From Alkalilimnicola ehrlichii MLHE-1 (GTDB taxonomy: Bacteria > Pseudomonadota > Gammaproteobacteria > Nitrococcales > Halorhodospiraceae): a DNA stretch of 32,000 nucleotides. Made by a program: the position numbers and the translations under genes. The notes beneath the pieces were generated by a model. It worked only from the letters and a program-made list of their open reading frames with translations, searched no databases and was not told where the DNA came from. The DNA is taken from assembly GCF_000014785.1 (NCBI RefSeq), contig NC_008340.1:1290001-1322000 (forward strand). Reading direction: 5' to 3'. Position 1 is the stretch's first letter. Every line of letters begins with the position of its first letter. Shown in pieces: positions 24,633 to 32,000 of the stretch.

Positions 24633-24636
<4 letters not shown>
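24395..24636 (-). pseudogene. hsdM: type I R-M methyltransferase hsdM remnant (internal deletions plus frameshift)
   Basis: [21 protein letters not shown] (HsdM N-terminus) is joined directly to [24 protein letters not shown]|LPEPD, and after a frameshift to [25 protein letters not shown] (HsdM C-terminal tail). About 80 codons remain where roughly 500 would be expected. The ATG overlaps the stop of the upstream gene (ATGA). Confidence 0.7.
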
Positions 24637-25634
<998 letters not shown>

Positions 25635-25822: not shown

Positions 25823-28204
25823 TTACAGCGTCGTGACCAGCTCTCCGATTACTCTAAGTTCGGTCACGGCGTCCTCGGTTAGCTCAATATCCCGATAGCC
25901 AAAATGGCGACTCTCAGGCTTCAGCACAATCCGTGTGTGATACCACGACCCGTCATCTCCAACCGCTTTCTCGCTGTGATACCGTTTGATTGTGTAACGC
26001 TCCCCGGTATCATCATCCTGGATATCACGGTGTGCTACCAGAACAATCTTGCCTTCCCGAGTGCCGGCCGGATTCGCTCTAAAAACACACCATGAGCCGT
26101 TCGGGATGCGCTTATTCATGGACTCGCCAATAACGCGGGTAACAAAAAAATCTGGTTCGGGTCGGAGCCAATCAGGAAGTTGCATCCAGTCACAATCTTC
26201 TACTGATTGAGCATCGCTGAACTCGCCGGCAGCCACTGCTAGATCGAATACCGGAACAGCATTTTCAAAAGGCCTCACGTCCTCAGTGGCCAGAAGTGGG
26301 TAGGGAAGGGCTTCATAGTTAGCCGCCCGCATTACGGTATTGTTAGCGGGGGTTTCGATCTGTTTGCGGAACCAGGCGTTGGTCTCTGGGTCCGTGCAGA
26401 ATACAAAACAGCCCTTCATTCCGCGAGTCAGCAGCGTACGATAAGTGTTCTTGATGATTTCGTCGGCTAGGCGCTGAGCGTCTTCCGGGTCTTGTTTGTA
26501 GAGTTTTCGAATACCCCGAACCGATCGGTCCATTGAAGATCGTTTGCGCCCGTCAGTGATGATCTCACCGTCGCGGACTACTAAATCTGGACCTATGATG
26601 ACACCCACATAGTCAAGCTCCAATCCTTGAATGGTGTGAATACAGCCGATCTGTTCGACGGAGTGCTCGGCCAGGGCCCACAGGCTGCCGTCCTTAGTTA
26701 GGTTCCACTGGGCAGAGAAGTCATGTTCAGGAATTTCTATGTCCATGGCCGTTGGGTCCTTTTTGCTCTTCCAGTCCCAACAGTAACCTGCCACCATGCG
26801 AGCACGGTTATTGGCATTGTGCGCCAGCACCTCCCGCCGTAAATCCTGTGGTGATTCCATTACGCGGACGTCAAAATCAATAGATTCAACGTCTGCATTA
26901 GCGGTGTCTCGAATGGCCAAAAGGTGATCGACAAAAGCGAGATAGCCATCCGAGCCACCACAGCGGAACTGTGACGCCAGCCTGAGCTCTGTCACTTCGG
27001 CCCCGAGAGTCTGGGCCCAGTGGCGGATTTCGTTTCGGGTGCCAATATCCTTGAGGGTTACTCGCTGTGCCTCGTCCACAAAAAAGACGGACAGCCGGGC
27101 GGCATGCATAATCTCCTTTATCTGGTTCTCGCCTTGGTTTCCGTACAGGCCGCTCTTCTCGTTCAAACGGTGTGCCTCATCTACTAGCAATACGTCGAAG
27201 CAATCGGGCTCACTCTCCATAAAAGAGCCTGAACCTCGGAACAAGTTGCTGATGCGGCTCTTTTTGAAAGAACCAGTTAGCTTGGCCTCATATACCGCCC
27301 TAGGTGCCGCGTTTCTCGACACGTACTGGGAGACAAGGTCTCGGTCTGTCAGTTTGGCGAGGAGGTTGATAGCCAATACCGATTTTCCAGTGCCGGGTCC
27401 ACCTTCGATAATTAGCACCTGTTTTTCCCCATGCTGGGCTCTGTGGGCTAACTCCAGCGCCTTCTCGAACGCGACCTTCTGGTCATCGATCATGACGAAG
27501 GCGTCGTTGCCCTTCAGCATCGACAGGACCGCGTCCGCTAGACTGCGAGATGGCCGGATACGTCCATTCTCTATGCGGTACATGATGTCGTGCCGATCAC
27601 CATAGCGGACATGGCGCTTCAGAAAATCGGCAAGGCGCTCTGCATCACGGGAAATAAAGACCGGTGCGCGGGCAATATGCGACGCATACACCGGGTCATT
27701 CACCGCTCTGTCGTCATCAAGGTTGTGCAGATATGCGCAGGGCGCGAGGTGGATCGAGTCGGCACGAACAGTTTCGTTGTAGTCCTCAATCAGCGCCGCA
27801 TATGTCCAGGCTTGGTAGGAGGGGTGGCTGGTCTCCCGCCAAGCGCCGCCGAGTGGGGTGCAGATAATGCCGTCTTTACCCAGCGCCTCAGCCTGCTGCC
27901 ACTGTTTTAGCTCCACGATGACAGCAGTCTCTTCACGTCTGTCGCTCTGGCCGGTCAGGATGAAATCGATACGCTTGCTGGTCAGGGGGATGTGGTACTC
28001 GAGTGACACGCCGGCATCATCCGGGATTTCCGGGTCGACTAATAGGTTGGCCATGAATTGCAGCGAATTGCGCCAGGAGTCCACCTCCTTGGCAGCGACT
28101 GATCGTGAAAGACGCCGACGAAACTCCAGCAATATCTTTTCGTGGATCCGGTTGAGGCGTATATCCTCGACGAAGGCAGCCTTGTTCGCAGCATATACAA
28201 TCAT
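25823..28204 (-). CDS. three-domain protein: PD-(D/E)xK nuclease-like N-terminus, DUF2075/Schlafen-like P-loop NTPase, and LexA/UmuD-type S24 peptidase C-terminus
   Basis: 793 aa.
- Nuclease-like motif RID80F..VIVE98LK100QW.
- Walker A GGPGTGK274S at nt 27380-27403, and Walker B LLVDEAHRL.
- Helicase-like C-terminal motifs IHTIQGLELDYVGVI and TLLTRGMKGCFVF.
- S24 module from about aa 645, with VAA|GEF, GES695M and TIK740RY. Confidence 0.85.
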   Translation of the reverse strand: MIVYAANKAAFVEDIRLNRIHEKILLEFRRRLSRSVAAKEVDSWRNSLQFMANLLVDPEIPDDAGVSLEYHIPLTSKRIDFILTGQSDRREETAVIVELKQWQQAEALGKDGIICTPLGGAWRETSHPSYQAWTYAALIEDYNETVRADSIHLAPCAYLHNLDDDRAVNDPVYASHIARAPVFISRDAERLADFLKRHVRYGDRHDIMYRIENGRIRPSRSLADAVLSMLKGNDAFVMIDDQKVAFEKALELAHRAQHGEKQVLIIEGGPGTGKSVLAINLLAKLTDRDLVSQYVSRNAAPRAVYEAKLTGSFKKSRISNLFRGSGSFMESEPDCFDVLLVDEAHRLNEKSGLYGNQGENQIKEIMHAARLSVFFVDEAQRVTLKDIGTRNEIRHWAQTLGAEVTELRLASQFRCGGSDGYLAFVDHLLAIRDTANADVESIDFDVRVMESPQDLRREVLAHNANNRARMVAGYCWDWKSKKDPTAMDIEIPEHDFSAQWNLTKDGSLWALAEHSVEQIGCIHTIQGLELDYVGVIIGPDLVVRDGEIITDGRKRSSMDRSVRGIRKLYKQDPEDAQRLADEIIKNTYRTLLTRGMKGCFVFCTDPETNAWFRKQIETPANNTVMRAANYEALPYPLLATEDVRPFENAVPVFDLAVAAGEFSDAQSVEDCDWMQLPDWLRPEPDFFVTRVIGESMNKRIPNGSWCVFRANPAGTREGKIVLVAHRDIQDDDTGERYTIKRYHSEKAVGDDGSWYHTRIVLKPESRHFGYRDIELTEDAVTELRVIGELVTTL

Positions 28205-28572
28205 GAGGCAGAATCATCCTCGCGTTGATACCCAGTGTATTTGAGTGATGATCCCCACACCTTTTCGGCGGGATAGCGCTTTTCGTTGAGCGCCATCTTC
28301 TCCTCTACGGCTCTAGGAATATCTATACCCAGCTTATCTGCCAGCCTGAGCAGGTAAATCTGCACATCCGCGATTTCGTGCGCCGCTGCCTGATGCTGAT
28401 CCGGCGTGAGCTCGTGAGACTGCGCTTCTGTCATCCACTGAAATAGGTCTTGGAGCTCCCCCACCTCTCCTGACAGCGCCATCGTCAGGTTCTTGGGGGA
28501 GTGGAATTGGTCCCAGTTACGAGCCTCAGCAAAGGCGCGCGCTTTTTCGCGTAGCGTTTGGAAATCCGACAT
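28201..28572 (-). CDS. MazG-like all-alpha NTP pyrophosphohydrolase (DCTPP1-like)
   Basis: 123 aa. It has F.EARNWDQFHSPKNL..ALSGEVGELQDLFQW and HEIADVQIYLLRLADKLGIDI, which are EExxE/ExxD metal-binding motifs. The stop overlaps the start of the 793-aa gene (ATGA at 28201-28204). Confidence 0.85.
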   Translation of the reverse strand: MSDFQTLREKARAFAEARNWDQFHSPKNLTMALSGEVGELQDLFQWMTEAQSHELTPDQHQAAAHEIADVQIYLLRLADKLGIDIPRAVEEKMALNEKRYPAEKVWGSSLKYTGYQREDDSAS

Positions 28573-28596: not shown

Positions 28597-28806
28597 TTAA
28601 GGCAGTGGCTCACCCGTCAGGGTGAAGTAGAGCCGCTGGATGGTGCCGATGGGGACTTGACCGTCGGTGGGGTACTCGCGCACCGCCACGCCCCGGGTGG
28701 CCTGCGGGTTCAGTGCGGCCAGGCTTTGCACCGTCCAGCCGGAGGCGCGGAGCTGTTCATCGATGCGGTCGCGGGCGCGTTGTTCCGGGTTCTGGTTATT
28801 GGGCAT
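28597..28806 (-). pseudogene. hsdR: N-terminal stub of a type I restriction subunit hsdR
   Basis: PEQRARDRIDEQLRASGWTVQSLAALNPQATRGVAVREYPTDGQ matches the HsdR N-terminal domain pattern (..IDxQLxxAGWxVQ....GVAVREFP). Homology is lost after about 50 codons and a stop follows at codon 70. Confidence 0.6.
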
Positions 28807-29454: not shown

Positions 29455-29750
29455 CTAACTGACACTTTGAACGGCCCTGCATTTGGGATACCCCGAGCAA
29501 CCCCAGAATTGATTGCCTGCATTCGCGCCCCGCTTGGCCGTGCGCAAGACCATGTCGTTACCACACCTGGGACACTTCCGCTCTGCCGTCGGGTCGGACC
29601 GAGACCGGAGCTGTTGGACGTGCTGGCGATGCGTCTTCCGTGTTGGCTCCAATCGGCCAGACTTGATCTGCGACAGGAGGTCTTGTACCTCGGACTCACT
29701 CAGCACCGGCTCAGTGAATGACTTGATGTACGTGATGTAGGCGCCGCCCC
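29455..29750 (-). pseudogene. NERD-domain protein, 3' half (linker plus topoisomerase-type C4 zinc finger), separated from its 5' half by an IS
   Basis: ..GGAYITYIKSFTEPVLSESEVQDLLSQIKSGRL..CPRCGNDMVLRTAKRGANAGNQFWGCSGYPKC. The frame continues upstream of the nominal GTG start, right up to the IS end. Confidence 0.8.
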
Positions 29751-31682
29751 CCCAAGTTCCACAGTTAACGCCGTAACTATCTGATCCTGTTAGGCCCGGA
29801 ATTCGAAAAATGCCACAACACGGTCAACGCGGGGCCTTCGGAACCTCCACGCCGGCGGCTTCGAAAAGGTCCAGCTGTTCCTGGTTGGGTCGGGTAAGCC
29901 CTTCGTAGGCGCGGCTACCCACACGCACCGTGTGCCGCTGGATTTGCCGCAGGCTCCGTAGCAGCTTTTCCGGTGAGCAGGCGCTGCCGGCGGCCTTGAG
30001 GCGCCCGCGCAAGACCCGGTAGAGCACCAGCGCGAGGAAGCAAATCATCGCGTGCGCCCGAATGCGCTCCGGCAGCCGGTGGTAGACCGGCGCGATTTCA
30101 ATCTCGCTCTTGAGTACCCGGAATCCACGCTCGATATCGGCCAGGGAGCGGTAACGCTCTACCACAGCTTCCGCCCCCATGTCGGTGAGGCTGGTAACCA
30201 GCAGTAGCTTGCCGTCCAGACGTTCGGCAGCCGCCCAGGCGGGCTCATCGATGGTGTAGCTGAATTGCGGCGAGCCGAGATCGGCCTTGATGATCGCGCT
30301 CATGCGCCTCTCCAGCACGGCCTTGTGGAAGCGCTGGTAGGCACTACGGTCGGTGGAACGCCGCCCACGACCGGGCTGGCCAGCATCCTGATTATCGAGT
30401 CGCTCGGCGAGTTGGGCACCAAGGGCGTCAAGCTCTTCGATGGTCTGCCGACGCTGCGCGCTCTGCTCGGCGGCCCGTTCGGCATTGTGGGCCACCACCA
30501 GGCGTCGGCCCTGCCAGGTGGTTTCGGTCACCACGTCCTGACTAGGCTCGGTGACGGCGGTTTCCAGTTGCGTATGCAGAGACTCCATCACCTCGGTGAA
30601 GTCCCCGTAACGCCGGGCGGGTACAGCCAGAATGTAGTCGACCGTCAGCCCCTGCTCGACGCCCAGTGCCTCCAGAGTGTCGATGTTATCGAAGCTGAGC
30701 AGGCCGCGGTCGGCGACCACTACCACGCGGGCGAGCGCGAAACGCTCCAGCAGACGTTCAATCATTGGGGCCAGGGTGCGCGTCTCGGCGACATTCCCCT
30801 CGAAGACCTCGTGGGCGATCGGCAGGCCTTCGGCAGTCTGGACCACCCCCAGCGCAAATTGGCGGCCAATACCGGCGGTGTCCTTGCTGAGGCCATGCTG
30901 ACGGATATCGTCTTCCATCGCATGGGTGCCGTGGATGCGTACCGTGGTGAGATCGTAAAAGATGACGCTGAGATCCTGGTCAAGCAGCGGCCGCAACTGG
31001 CCGGCTACCGCACGCTCCACGGCCTCCTTGTGGTCCTCCAACGCATCCATGGCACGCAGGAGTTGCTCGTGGTGCACGGTCGAGGCATCGAGCCCGGGCA
31101 TGCTGGTGCTCTCGCGCAACCACTCCAGCGTGCCGCGTTTGCTGCTCGGCTCAGCGAGGCGGTTGAAAACCATGGCTCGGATGAGTGCCTCGGCATCGAA
31201 CTGTCGTCGGGAGGAGCGCAGAGCCCGTTTCAAGGCCCCATCCAGGCCTAACTCCTGCCAGAGCTGATGGAGGGTCCACACATCGCCAAAGGCGCGGGCG
31301 GTCTCGAACTGAGGCGCTTCAGGCAATGATTCAGGACGCCCCACCGCCCGTTGGAGTCCCTTGATGAGCGGCTCCAGGTCAGCTGCCTCAAGCTGATCAA
31401 GGCGACCCAGGCTGGCTACCACACGCTGTTTAACCTTGCCGTTGGCGTCTCGGTAGCCCTCGACCAACTGCAAATAGCGGCGCGGGCCGGACTTTGTGAT
31501 GCGCGTGTACATGGCATGACATTATGCCACCCAGAGACCTGCAATCAATAGCCAGCTTAGGATTCGCGTGACACAACAGCGGCTTGGCTGGTTCTGGCCG
31601 CGCAGATCAATCGCTTCAAGCACTTACGTCCCACAACCCCTTGGGTTTTCGGTCTGAAGTGTGGAACTTGGGCGCCCCAGGT
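29751..31682 (-). mobile_element. IS1634/IS4-family insertion sequence (about 1.93 kb)
   Basis: Perfect 13-bp terminal inverted repeats: cccaagttccaca (29751-29763) and tgtggaacttggg (31670-31682). They are flanked by a 6-bp direct duplication, CGCCCC (29745-29750 and 31683-31688). The element holds a single transposase ORF. Confidence 0.85.
29824..31512 (-). CDS. IS1634/IS4 family DDE transposase
   Basis: 562 aa. MYTRITKSGPRRYLQLVEGYRD.NGKVKQRVVASLGRLD.. is a typical IS1634-group N-terminus. VVVADRGL and YRSLADIERGFRVLKSEIEIAPVYH are present. Confidence 0.9.
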   Translation of the reverse strand: MYTRITKSGPRRYLQLVEGYRDANGKVKQRVVASLGRLDQLEAADLEPLIKGLQRAVGRPESLPEAPQFETARAFGDVWTLHQLWQELGLDGALKRALRSSRRQFDAEALIRAMVFNRLAEPSSKRGTLEWLRESTSMPGLDASTVHHEQLLRAMDALEDHKEAVERAVAGQLRPLLDQDLSVIFYDLTTVRIHGTHAMEDDIRQHGLSKDTAGIGRQFALGVVQTAEGLPIAHEVFEGNVAETRTLAPMIERLLERFALARVVVVADRGLLSFDNIDTLEALGVEQGLTVDYILAVPARRYGDFTEVMESLHTQLETAVTEPSQDVVTETTWQGRRLVVAHNAERAAEQSAQRRQTIEELDALGAQLAERLDNQDAGQPGRGRRSTDRSAYQRFHKAVLERRMSAIIKADLGSPQFSYTIDEPAWAAAERLDGKLLLVTSLTDMGAEAVVERYRSLADIERGFRVLKSEIEIAPVYHRLPERIRAHAMICFLALVLYRVLRGRLKAAGSACSPEKLLRSLRQIQRHTVRVGSRAYEGLTRPNQEQLDLFEAAGVEVPKAPR

Positions 31683-32000
31683 CACGCTGGCGGGCATGGG
31701 CGTCTTGAACCTACTTGCACCCGTGAACACCACCACGGAATGGATGTGCTCTGGCGGGACACCAAGCGCTGACTCCAGTGCCTTCACGTGCTTGTAATTC
31801 TGGCGAAGGGGGTTCTGGAACTTGAAGGTTTTCTTGTAGATCTTCTGCGTCCACTGAGCCTGACGCTCGCCGCCGAAAATCCAGCCCTTCATGTTCTTTG
31901 TCTCTACCACGAAGATGCCGTAGCGAGACACGAAGATATGGTCGATCTGCGTGGTTCCGTCCGGTGTGGGTAGCGTGACGTTGTGCAGTCGGTGGTATTT
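31683..32000 (-). pseudogene. NERD-domain protein, 5' part (runs off the window edge), interrupted by the IS
   Basis: ..HNVTLPTPDGTTQIDHIFVSRYGIFVVETKNMKGWIFG..WTQKIYKKTFKFQNPLRQNYKHVKALE..VVVFTG...FKTPMPASVTWG. The frame then reads into the IS inverted repeat. Confidence 0.8.

Follow-up and report, generated by a model that had tools for sequence, protein, structure and literature searches.

The gene pair in Alkalilimnicola ehrlichii

Two overlapping genes on the minus strand of a 32,000 nucleotide (nt) segment of the Alkalilimnicola ehrlichii MLHE-1 genome (GCF_000014785.1, NC_008340.1, positions 1,290,001-1,322,000), designated the window, encode a MazG-like NTP pyrophosphohydrolase (gene 1) and a large fusion protein (gene 2) in which a putative nuclease domain is followed by an SF1B helicase and an S24 peptidase. 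All coordinates of the locus are window positions (Table 1). An initial annotation of the window had singled out the pair as a candidate defence module, and the coordinates, lengths and strand that it gave for both open reading frames (ORFs) were exactly those found here. The stop codon of gene 1 and the start codon of gene 2 share an ATGA, an overlap that was also described at the outset and was borne out by direct reading of the junction (...gcc tca TGA / ATG att gta). In the protein search, gene 2 was 100% identical to an A. ehrlichii protein. The region was indeed richer in A and T than its surroundings, as had been remarked earlier, the G+C content being 0.53-0.56 between 26 and 28 kb versus 0.62-0.70 over most of the window.

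Table 1. Positions of the gene pair, the parts of gene 2 and the adjoining genes in the window
Feature	Position	Strand	Description	Evidence
Gene 1	28201..28572	-	123 amino acid (aa) DCTPP1/RS21-C6-type all-alpha MazG NTP pyrophosphohydrolase (predicted)	ORF, PF12643, PDB similarity
Gene 2	25823..28204	-	793 aa nuclease-like / SF1B helicase / S24 peptidase fusion	ORF, Pfam
ATGA stop/start overlap, genes 1/2	28201..28204	-	translational coupling	direct sequence reading
N-terminal domain, aa 1-255	27440..28204	-	putative PD-(D/E)xK nuclease	invariant E69, D80, E98-x-K100, H127-P128, Q131-x-x-x-Y135
DUF2075 / Schlafen group-3 SF1B helicase core, aa 261-605	26390..27424	-	Walker A G268-S275 (K274), Walker B D342-E343	PF09848 E 2e-109
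Flexible linker, ~aa 612-650	26255..26371	-	31-61 aa long among 75 homologues; sequence variable	pLDDT ~40
S24 peptidase domain, aa 651-793	25826..26254	-	nucleophile S695 (G-x-S-M), general base K740	PF00717
Predicted LexA/UmuD-type self-cleavage dipeptide A659-G660	26225..26230	-	35 residues before nucleophile S695	
RhuM+Fic protein (context, outside module)	24633..25634	-	directly downstream of gene 2	Pfam RhuM 2.7e-24, Fic 2.3e-12; PADLOC PDC-S23 1.8e-120
69-aa ORF (context)	28597..28806	-	ends 24 nt upstream of gene 1	NCBIfam HsdR model E 0.007 only
NERD gene (context)	29455..31931	-	NERD fragment 31557-31931, Zn-ribbon part 29455-29706	Pfam NERD 5.4e-22, Zn_ribbon_Top1 9.4e-13
IS4-family transposase gene, intact (context)	29824-31512		within apparently split NERD gene	DDE_Tnp_1 1.5e-14

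Linkage and distribution of the two genes

Relatives of gene 2 were numerous. A word-indexed protein search gave at least 8,000 candidates, each scoring E<=1e-10, and most of the best 120 were full length (~793-820 aa). At least 591 stretches in a set of contigs with one genome per species encoded a relative. The locus counts given here refer to the best 80 of these species-representative stretches, which were 46-85% identical and came from Gamma-, Beta- and Zetaproteobacteria, Verrucomicrobia, Bacteroidales, Nitrospira, Kiritimatiellae, Chloroflexota, Saccharibacteria and Oscillospiraceae. Between Proteobacteria, Verrucomicrobia, Bacteroidales, Nitrospira, Saccharibacteria and Firmicutes the identity of the gene 2 proteins was 46-60%. 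Such a distribution is clearly horizontal, and the G+C content of the locus, which is low for the host genome, likewise points to mobility.

A MazG gene was directly adjacent to gene 2 on the same strand in 62 of the 80 loci (~83% of the loci with enough flanking sequence). The 18 MazG-negative loci comprised 5 with too little upstream sequence and ~13 in which gene 2 was solo, many of them in Verrucomicrobia. MazG was located upstream of gene 2 in 50 loci and immediately downstream in 8, the latter belonging to a Halomonas/Vreelandella/Litchfieldella/Marinobacterium clade, so that the linkage has survived rearrangement. The 4-nt overlap seen in A. ehrlichii recurred in 16 related loci, and gaps of 4-57 nt separated the two genes in 33 more. 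In addition, the pairwise identities of the MazG proteins followed those of the gene 2 proteins (r=0.81), a value that was reached in 0 of 999 Mantel permutations. A third conserved gene was sought by clustering all of the ORFs that flank the module, which gave none. The adjacency, the occurrence of both gene orders, the correlated divergence and the lack of any other conserved neighbour among the flanking ORFs thus establish that the two-gene module is real, co-inherited and usually translationally coupled. The conservation of MazG-like and DUF2075 genes as neighbours, which the initial annotation had put forward as something to be looked for in other genomes, therefore extends across phyla, with MazG the sole conserved neighbour of gene 2.

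In a Haliea locus that was scored as MazG-less (L005, 2539-2865), the sequence just downstream of gene 2 contained a remnant of MazG that was degenerate and frame-shifted (...ALRDEIAVVQLYLIRW...); some of the solo loci may be recent MazG losses. A Polaromonas metagenome-assembled genome (MAG; L051) carried a second copy of MazG that stood alone beside a PCC-domain gene and was uninformative.

Domains of the gene 2 protein

Residue conservation in gene 2 was evaluated in 75 full-length sequences from all of the phyla sampled. The residues D80, E98, K100, K274, S695 and K740, which had been selected earlier as targets for mutagenesis, were found at the positions cited and were invariant in 75 of the 75 homologues. 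Because these catalytic residues do not vary, the three putative activities of gene 2, nuclease-like, helicase and S24, are under strict purifying selection, as is the metal site of MazG described below.

The N-terminal domain had no Pfam match at E<=10. An exhaustive HMMER scan found the domain in 1,828 clusters at 50% identity, in the N-terminal position in the full-length representatives listed, and among the best 150 matches the complete proteins formed two classes by size, with ~38 of ~620-650 aa and ~8 of ~785-815 aa. Members that were only 31-51% identical shared invariant E69, R78, D80, G85, E98, K100, W102, H127, P128, Q131, Y135 and N161. The AlphaFold2 (AF2) model of the domain (pLDDT 85.7, pTM 0.81) placed D80 and E98-x-K100 on consecutive strands and Q131-x-x-x-Y135 on the next helix, so that the motifs are arranged as in RecB/Cas4/Dna2-type PD-(D/E)xK nucleases. 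A Foldseek comparison with BFVD gave PD-(D/E)xK proteins only at E>0.3. Judged by its motifs, the domain is likely to be a PD-(D/E)xK nuclease. The PD-(D/E)xK-like motif recognized in the initial annotation is present, with D80 and E98-x-K100 invariant, but the nuclease fold itself had no Pfam match, no match among PDB sequences and no significant Foldseek match.

The central region of gene 2 matched PF09848, now designated SLFN-g3_helicase and formerly DUF2075, in agreement with the DUF2075/Schlafen-helicase-like P-loop NTPase proposed earlier. In the Walker motifs, K274, D342 and E343 were all invariant in 75 of 75 sequences. The full-length model (pLDDT 79) had Foldseek matches with E values between 1e-10 and 1e-6 to SLFN11 (7zel, the best, 1e-10), RecD2, Dna2, Dda and Upf1.

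The presence of a C-terminal LexA/UmuD-type S24 domain was also confirmed. The Peptidase_S24 match covered aa 651-789 and scored above the cutoff of 23.3 both in the full-length protein (E 2.3e-7, 30.9 bits) and when the domain was searched alone (9e-9, 35.5 bits), and the S695/K740 dyad was found in all 75 homologues. The spacing between the predicted cleavage dipeptide and the nucleophilic serine is that of LexA. The flanking residues A658 and G660 were present in 75 of 75 sequences, and position 659 was Ala in 64 and Cys in 11 (Bacteroidales-type sequences). The known scissile dipeptides in family S24 are Ala-Gly in LexA and lambda cI, and Cys-Gly in UmuD. These features indicate a complete LexA/UmuD-type module on a flexible tether, for which self-cleavage is predicted. 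In one relative of 1068 aa (P0213), a second helicase of the PIF1/RecD type was fused after the DUF2075 core in place of S24, and since another domain is carried there, the C-terminus of the gene 2 family can be regarded as a swappable slot.

The MazG-like protein

Gene 1 matched the MazG-like family PF12643 (E 3e-12, 47 bits versus a cutoff of 27) and the solved structures of DCTPP1/RS21-C6 (PDB 2a3q/6sqw; E 8e-26), with ~45% identity to mouse and human DCTPP1 over 110 residues. A weak match to phage MazZ was also obtained in the comparison with PDB sequences. The acidic residues E36, E39, E66 and D69 (EXXE...EXXD) were intact and aligned with the metal-site positions of DCTPP1. Among 59 homologues linked to the module, conservation of the same tetrad was at least 98%. 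The description of gene 1 as a MazG/DCTPP1-like protein with intact acidic motifs was therefore well founded, and the conserved metal site predicts a catalytically intact DCTPP1-like dNTP pyrophosphohydrolase.

The linkage was then viewed from the other side in a reciprocal test with the 80 closest metagenomic MazG homologues (49-79% identical), ~69 of which were in informative loci. A gene 2 homologue was directly adjacent in 17 and was found elsewhere within the locus in one more. The stand-alone MazG genes had as neighbours AsmA, RlmJ, CheZ, ArgH, methyltransferases and similar housekeeping genes, and the module-linked and stand-alone proteins were intermingled in identity at 50-60%. The comparison ruled out MazG as a dedicated partner family. 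Because the metagenomic proteins mostly stand alone among housekeeping genes, the MazG of the module can be seen to be a copy recruited from a common type of house-cleaning enzyme. For an enzyme recruited in this way, a DCTPP1-like activity is likely and a general dNTP-depleting "suicide" activity is unlikely.

In 2-3 metagenomic loci, a gene for an AAA_5 (McrB-type) ATPase followed a MazG of the same subfamily at +16 nt. In loci L111 (1825-4281) and L112 (350-2806), the protein encoded at this spacing had 704 aa, with AAA_5 at the C-terminus and a 440-aa N-terminal region that had no Pfam match. MazG and the AAA_5 protein are possibly a second MazG-containing defence pair.

Homologues lacking the S24 domain

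Several homologues matched only residues 1-~620 of gene 2, with 47-52% identity. Their genes were carried by Hymenobacter, Marivirga, Methanosphaera and Halalkalicoccus plasmids and by a Microcystis phage record, and in 3 of the 80 species loci the protein was likewise S24-less and ended at 624-638 aa. Directly upstream of the S24-less gene, Halalkalicoccus, Marivirga and the Microcystis record each had a homologue of MazG (36-40% identical), and with the haloarchaeal Halalkalicoccus plasmid the pairing reaches the archaea. The S24-less homologues of ~625 aa were more diverse than the S24-bearing form. Since they are both more diverse and also paired with MazG, the older unit is MazG with the nuclease-helicase, and the S24 tail is a later addition in one subclade.

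A gene of the Exo_endo_phos (EEP) family closely followed the S24-less homologue on plasmid 1 of Halalkalicoccus jeotgali (L090, 4648-8051), and an unannotated 416-aa gene occupied the same position in the record of Microcystis phage Mwe-JY31 (L091, 4657-8141), which hints that three-gene variants of the module exist. On Marivirga plasmid p1 (L088, 5001-8739), two tandem S24-less paralogues were found downstream of one MazG; they are apparently pseudogenes, each being split over several frames. A phage origin of the module was considered and rejected. Among 2.9 million viral contigs there were only 3 distant S24-less relatives, in addition to 4 weak or partial phage records, and this near-absence indicates that the module is cellular.

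Genomic neighbourhoods

The gene families that recurred around the module were identified in the best 80 loci by annotating one representative of each cluster. The most frequent was a PLD-helicase-DUF3427 Type IV methyl-directed restriction enzyme (10 loci; PADLOC mREase_IV 6e-252), which was often directly downstream. The others were an HNH endonuclease with a Type IV-like N-terminus (8 loci), RhuM-Fic proteins corresponding to PDC-S23 (7 loci, and also present in this window), AbiEi and AbiEii (6 and 4 loci, respectively), SoFic (5 loci; 1e-117), a C5 methyltransferase (5 loci), a McrB-like protein (4 loci) and DUF2357 with PDDEXK_7 (3 loci). Modification-dependent nucleases accounted for 16 loci. 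The occurrence of DUF3427 modification-dependent enzymes beside DUF2075 NTPases has been noted previously (PMC6765204). No recurrent family of repair genes was found near the module in the 80 loci.

The defence-island context that had been proposed for the A. ehrlichii pair was therefore found repeatedly elsewhere, with recurrent defence families in at least 35 of the 80 loci, a raw tally made without a genome-background comparison. The module is often embedded among defence genes and is defence-island-associated. In the Polaromonas MAG (L051, 16558-17840), a two-gene PDC-M21 candidate (A 1.6e-31, B 1.9e-59) was located ~6 kb downstream of the module, close to the second, stand-alone MazG copy.

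Relation to known systems

The profile searches returned the families that had been expected, PF09848, Peptidase_S24 and the MazG-like PF12643. When the two proteins were compared with PADLOC v2, gene 1 had no match and gene 2 had only partial, weak matches to PDC-S41 (63.6 bits), AbiO (38 bits) and Nhi (35.5 bits), so that no model covers either gene. Membership in PDC-S41, Nhi or AbiO was rejected because the matches were partial and low-scoring. The literature search found no paper that combines DUF2075 with MazG and no DUF2075 paper since 2022 that describes the module. The earlier remark that the combination was not recognized as a named system thus holds in that neither a PADLOC model nor a paper on the pair was found, but the core architecture is that of the validated Nhi/Nhi-like and AbiO systems and of the candidate PDC-S41. 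From its domain content, the module is best classified as an unnamed variant within the nuclease-DUF2075 helicases to which Nhi, AbiO and PDC-S41 belong, and not as a categorically new system. The features that set it apart are the predicted S24 self-cleavage module and the conserved DCTPP1-like partner.

Nhi of Staphylococcus epidermidis (SERP2475) is a validated single-gene system of 606 aa that consists of a PD-(D/E)xK domain, DUF2075 and a variable C-terminal domain (Bari et al. 2022). A second validated single-gene anti-phage system, the "Nhi-like" protein, has the same core architecture (Millman et al. 2022). Gene 2 resembles both in the succession of an N-terminal nuclease-type domain, putative in gene 2, a PF09848 SF1B helicase and a variable C-terminal domain. 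It also shares with Nhi its defence neighbourhoods, its horizontal spread and its structural kinship to Dda, Dna2 and Upf1, which was reported for Nhi by Bari et al. However, the match to the PADLOC Nhi model (PDLC02372) was confined to the N-lobe of the helicase, with residues 256-414 of the query aligned to positions 198-329 of 470. Moreover, the N-terminal domain of gene 2 constitutes a separate, Pfam-less family, and the C-terminus is an S24 peptidase in gene 2 but is glyoxalase/bleomycin-resistance-like in Nhi. Nhi is a single gene, whereas gene 2 has a conserved MazG partner gene.

PDC-S41 and AbiO are likewise (candidate) defence proteins that contain DUF2075, and neither definition includes an S24 domain or a MazG partner. 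The match of gene 2 to the 657-position PDC-S41 model (PDLC05014) extended only over residues 356-609, but the S24-less relatives matched it weakly (~50-65 bits) in both the N-terminal domain and the helicase. On these scores, PDC-S41 is a distant sister of like architecture and not the same family.

The likeness of gene 1 to DCTPP1/RS21-C6 and MazZ resides in the common EXXE...EXXD metal site; the difference is that gene 1 is coupled to and co-inherited with a nuclease-helicase. Enzymes that act on the dNTP pool in defence reportedly include dCTP deaminase and dGTPase (said to be described by Tal et al. in 2022). The MazG of the module resembles these in being a nucleotide-pool enzyme in a defence context, but they are single-gene systems that deplete canonical dNTPs, whereas MazG appears to be a housekeeping-like sanitiser that is subordinate to the nuclease-helicase. 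MazG is among the predicted, non-validated defence domains of DefensePredictor, where it occurs in a different system (PMC13092281).

The tail of gene 2 has in common with LexA, UmuD and lambda cI the Ser-Lys dyad, an Ala-Gly/Cys-Gly bond ~35 residues upstream of the serine, and a flexible linker. Unlike these proteins, its partner is a 650-aa nuclease-helicase and not a DNA-binding domain or a short peptide, and gene 2 is not preceded by an SOS box. The helicase domain is homologous to that of SLFN11, which belongs to the same Pfam family and was the best structural match. SLFN11 is activated by single-stranded DNA (ssDNA) or replication stress (PMC13056530), and a tail that responds to RecA filaments would be an analogous input to gene 2. 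In contrast to the Schlafens, gene 2 had no Pfam match to the Schlafen-core (AlbA_2-type) RNase, its N-terminal domain is unrelated, and its target is probably DNA and not tRNA.

SOS control and proposed mechanism

The proteobacterial SOS box, CTGT-N8-ACAG, was the only motif used to assess transcriptional control. The window contained 10 matches versus 9.6 expected, none of which was upstream of the operon. Similarly, the sequences upstream of the module in 76 loci had 0 exact matches and 5 with <=1 mismatch versus 3.35 expected. Transcriptional control by LexA was rejected on these grounds, and the lack of SOS-box enrichment upstream of the module argues for control that is post-translational.

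The locus is considered, with a little more confidence than doubt, to be a horizontally mobile two-gene anti-phage module with a Nhi-type nuclease-helicase effector, RecA-responsive self-cleavage and a nucleotide-pool accessory. The working model of the initial annotation, with S24 as the sensor and MazG acting on the nucleotide pool or as a brake, is plausible. By analogy with Nhi, the nuclease-helicase would attack phage replication or recombination intermediates. The S24 tail, by analogy with LexA, lambda cI and UmuD, would respond post-translationally to RecA-ssDNA filaments, the co-protease signal for all three. Cleavage at A659/G660 would detach the tail and produce a 659-aa fragment resembling the natural S24-less homologues, so that a tail that is autoinhibitory or dimerising would be released during infection and the enzyme activated. 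Activation is favoured as the outcome of cleavage, with confidence and doubt in balance, because the product mimics the natural tail-less enzymes and because a defence that shut down whenever phages induced RecA activation would be a fragile one. Cleavage as an off-switch is given less weight but is a serious possibility, since it accounts for the data almost equally well.

The MazG accessory is most likely to hydrolyse non-canonical, phage-made dNTPs such as 5-modified dCTP, judging from its relatives. DCTPP1 prefers 5-modified dCTPs, and phage MazZ shapes the nucleotide pool for modified genomes. An activity of this kind would deny phages the protection that base modifications give to their DNA. 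It agrees with the frequency of Type IV restriction enzymes near the module and with the pairing of MazG with the AAA_5 (McrB-type) gene. It would be helpful and dispensable: since ~17% of the loci are without MazG, the protein is regarded as an accessory and not as an obligate antitoxin.

The most detailed version of the scheme is correspondingly speculative and, taken as a whole, rather doubtful: RecA filaments on phage intermediates would trigger autoproteolysis of the nuclease-helicase, unleashing it without transcription, and MazG would destroy phage-modified dNTPs so that the DNA of the invader stays cleavable. If this is true, no earlier immune effector would have sensed the SOS co-protease signal directly as the RecA-triggered, MazG-assisted nuclease-helicase does, and there would be a parallel with the ssDNA-activated human SLFN11. 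We know of no named defence system that couples the RecA signal to an immune nuclease through self-cleavage. If validated, the S24 fusion would connect the RecA filament, a universal DNA-damage signal, directly to an immune nuclease, and the conserved partner would be the first experimentally tractable MazG-type pyrophosphatase in defence. Through this partner, a means by which hosts counter the hypermodification of phage DNA could also come to light, in keeping with the frequent Type IV neighbours. The annotation of many genomes would gain, since the module has at least 591 species representatives and archaeal members, and its N-terminal domain, with 1,828 clusters, is without a Pfam family.

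Alternative explanations

Several observations weigh against the interpretation of the locus as an anti-phage module of this type. The tally of 35 in 80 loci is, as stated, raw and was based on one annotated representative per neighbour cluster, and some module loci are in non-defence contexts. In a genome from a soil metagenome (L083, 202-1903 and 12391-14607), the module is flanked on one side by a umuDC operon and on the other by successive genes for PIN7, glyoxalase, MGMT and Tag, a setting that suggests DNA repair and differs from the defence islands of other loci. The assignment of the N-terminal domain as a nuclease is not reinforced by the structural comparison, in which Foldseek gave no significant match in the PDB, the best being EndoMS/NucS, a PD-(D/E)xK protein, at E 0.049, while VC1899 and Cap4 were among the other entries. 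When the PDB sequences were searched with phmmer and with two profiles, there were no matches or only spurious ones to armadillo repeats. MazG stood alone near housekeeping genes in 51 of the ~69 informative metagenomic loci, so its presence may reflect ordinary sanitation of the nucleotide pool, and gene 2 was without MazG in ~13 of ~75 informative loci. Lastly, the predicted N-fragment of gene 2 ends in ...AVAA. The cleaved N-fragment of LexA, which ends in VAA, is a ClpXP substrate, and this resemblance favours an off-switch.

The last point is central to the explanation in which the S24 tail is a safety device. The intact enzyme, probably dimerised through S24, would be constitutively active, and host damage and the resulting RecA filaments would lead to cleavage and degradation of the -AA fragment, sparing repair intermediates by a form of "restriction alleviation". 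The cleavage site and the Ser-Lys dyad are strictly conserved, cleavage inactivates LexA and lambda cI, and the S24-less homologues, which are the more diverse, apparently need no autoinhibitor, so that the tail may protect rather than activate. There is an established precedent in HsdR, which is removed by ClpXP after DNA damage (PMC4231737). However, many phages provoke RecA activation themselves and could thereby disarm such a defence, the cleavage product is close to the natural and presumably active S24-less enzymes, and in UmuD the S24 cleavage is one that activates. The safety device is considered less likely than not, and activation by cleavage is retained as the preferred scheme. A quite different possibility is that gene 2 functions by itself, as a single-gene system like Nhi, with MazG as a hitch-hiking housekeeping gene that plays no part or as no more than a brake that lowers the NTP/dNTP supply of the helicase. 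The solo loci, the ability of Nhi to work as a single gene and the intermingling of module-linked and stand-alone MazG proteins are consistent with it, but a passenger would not have remained a direct neighbour in 62 of 80 loci from different phyla, and in archaea as well, in two gene orders, with frequent 4-nt overlaps, co-evolution and conserved catalytic residues, and this explanation is improbable. The proposal that the pair is an accessory SOS-linked module for DNA-damage tolerance or repair, in which the UmuD-like tail couples the nuclease-helicase to RecA at stalled forks and MazG sanitises dNTPs for repair synthesis, is the least probable of all. It draws on the S24 domain as a hallmark of SOS proteins, on the house-cleaning nature of DCTPP1-type MazG and the mostly housekeeping contexts of the subfamily, on the one locus among MGMT, Tag, glyoxalase and UmuDC genes, and on the repair helicases Dna2 and RecD2 among the best structural matches. 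Against this, no repair family recurs in the 80 loci but nine defence families do, the spread is patchy and horizontal across phyla, with low G+C islands and carriage on plasmids, no SOS box is found upstream, and the closest functionally tested relatives (Nhi, Nhi-like and AbiO) are anti-phage.

Other features of the locus

The Doc/Fic gene that had been noted beside the pair was present as a RhuM+Fic protein, which is a full-length match to PDC-S23. A protein of this type is located <~1 kb from the module in 7 other unrelated loci, and the proximity may go beyond chance association within islands.

The region had also been described as a wrecked type I restriction-modification (R-M) locus, a description for which there was barely any support. 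Its sole basis is the 69-aa ORF, which occurs only in A. ehrlichii. Its marginal similarity to the N-terminal helix of HsdR-type nucleases means that it could be what is left of the N-terminus of an HsdR-like nuclease. The locus had no remnant of HsdM or HsdS and no methylase NPPF/NPPY motif in any long ORF, and there were no R-M Pfam matches among the genes called in a second A. ehrlichii assembly (L081). Of the features first described, the type I R-M remnant is therefore the least secure. The 69-aa ORF overlaps the OsmC stop codon, and OsmC, the 69-aa ORF, MazG and gene 2 may be co-transcribed.

The NERD gene reported nearby was present as a fragment. The layout of the genes here and in the second assembly indicates that it was apparently split by the IS4-family transposase gene, which is intact, so that the insertion sequence (IS) "debris" of the initial annotation is not debris. 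A second copy of this 562-aa transposase gene in the other assembly (CP184336.1; L081, 13196-14884) splits the RhuM-Fic gene that is intact in the window. The IS4-family insertion is thus polymorphic between the A. ehrlichii assemblies, both of which have another copy that separates NERD from the Zn-ribbon.

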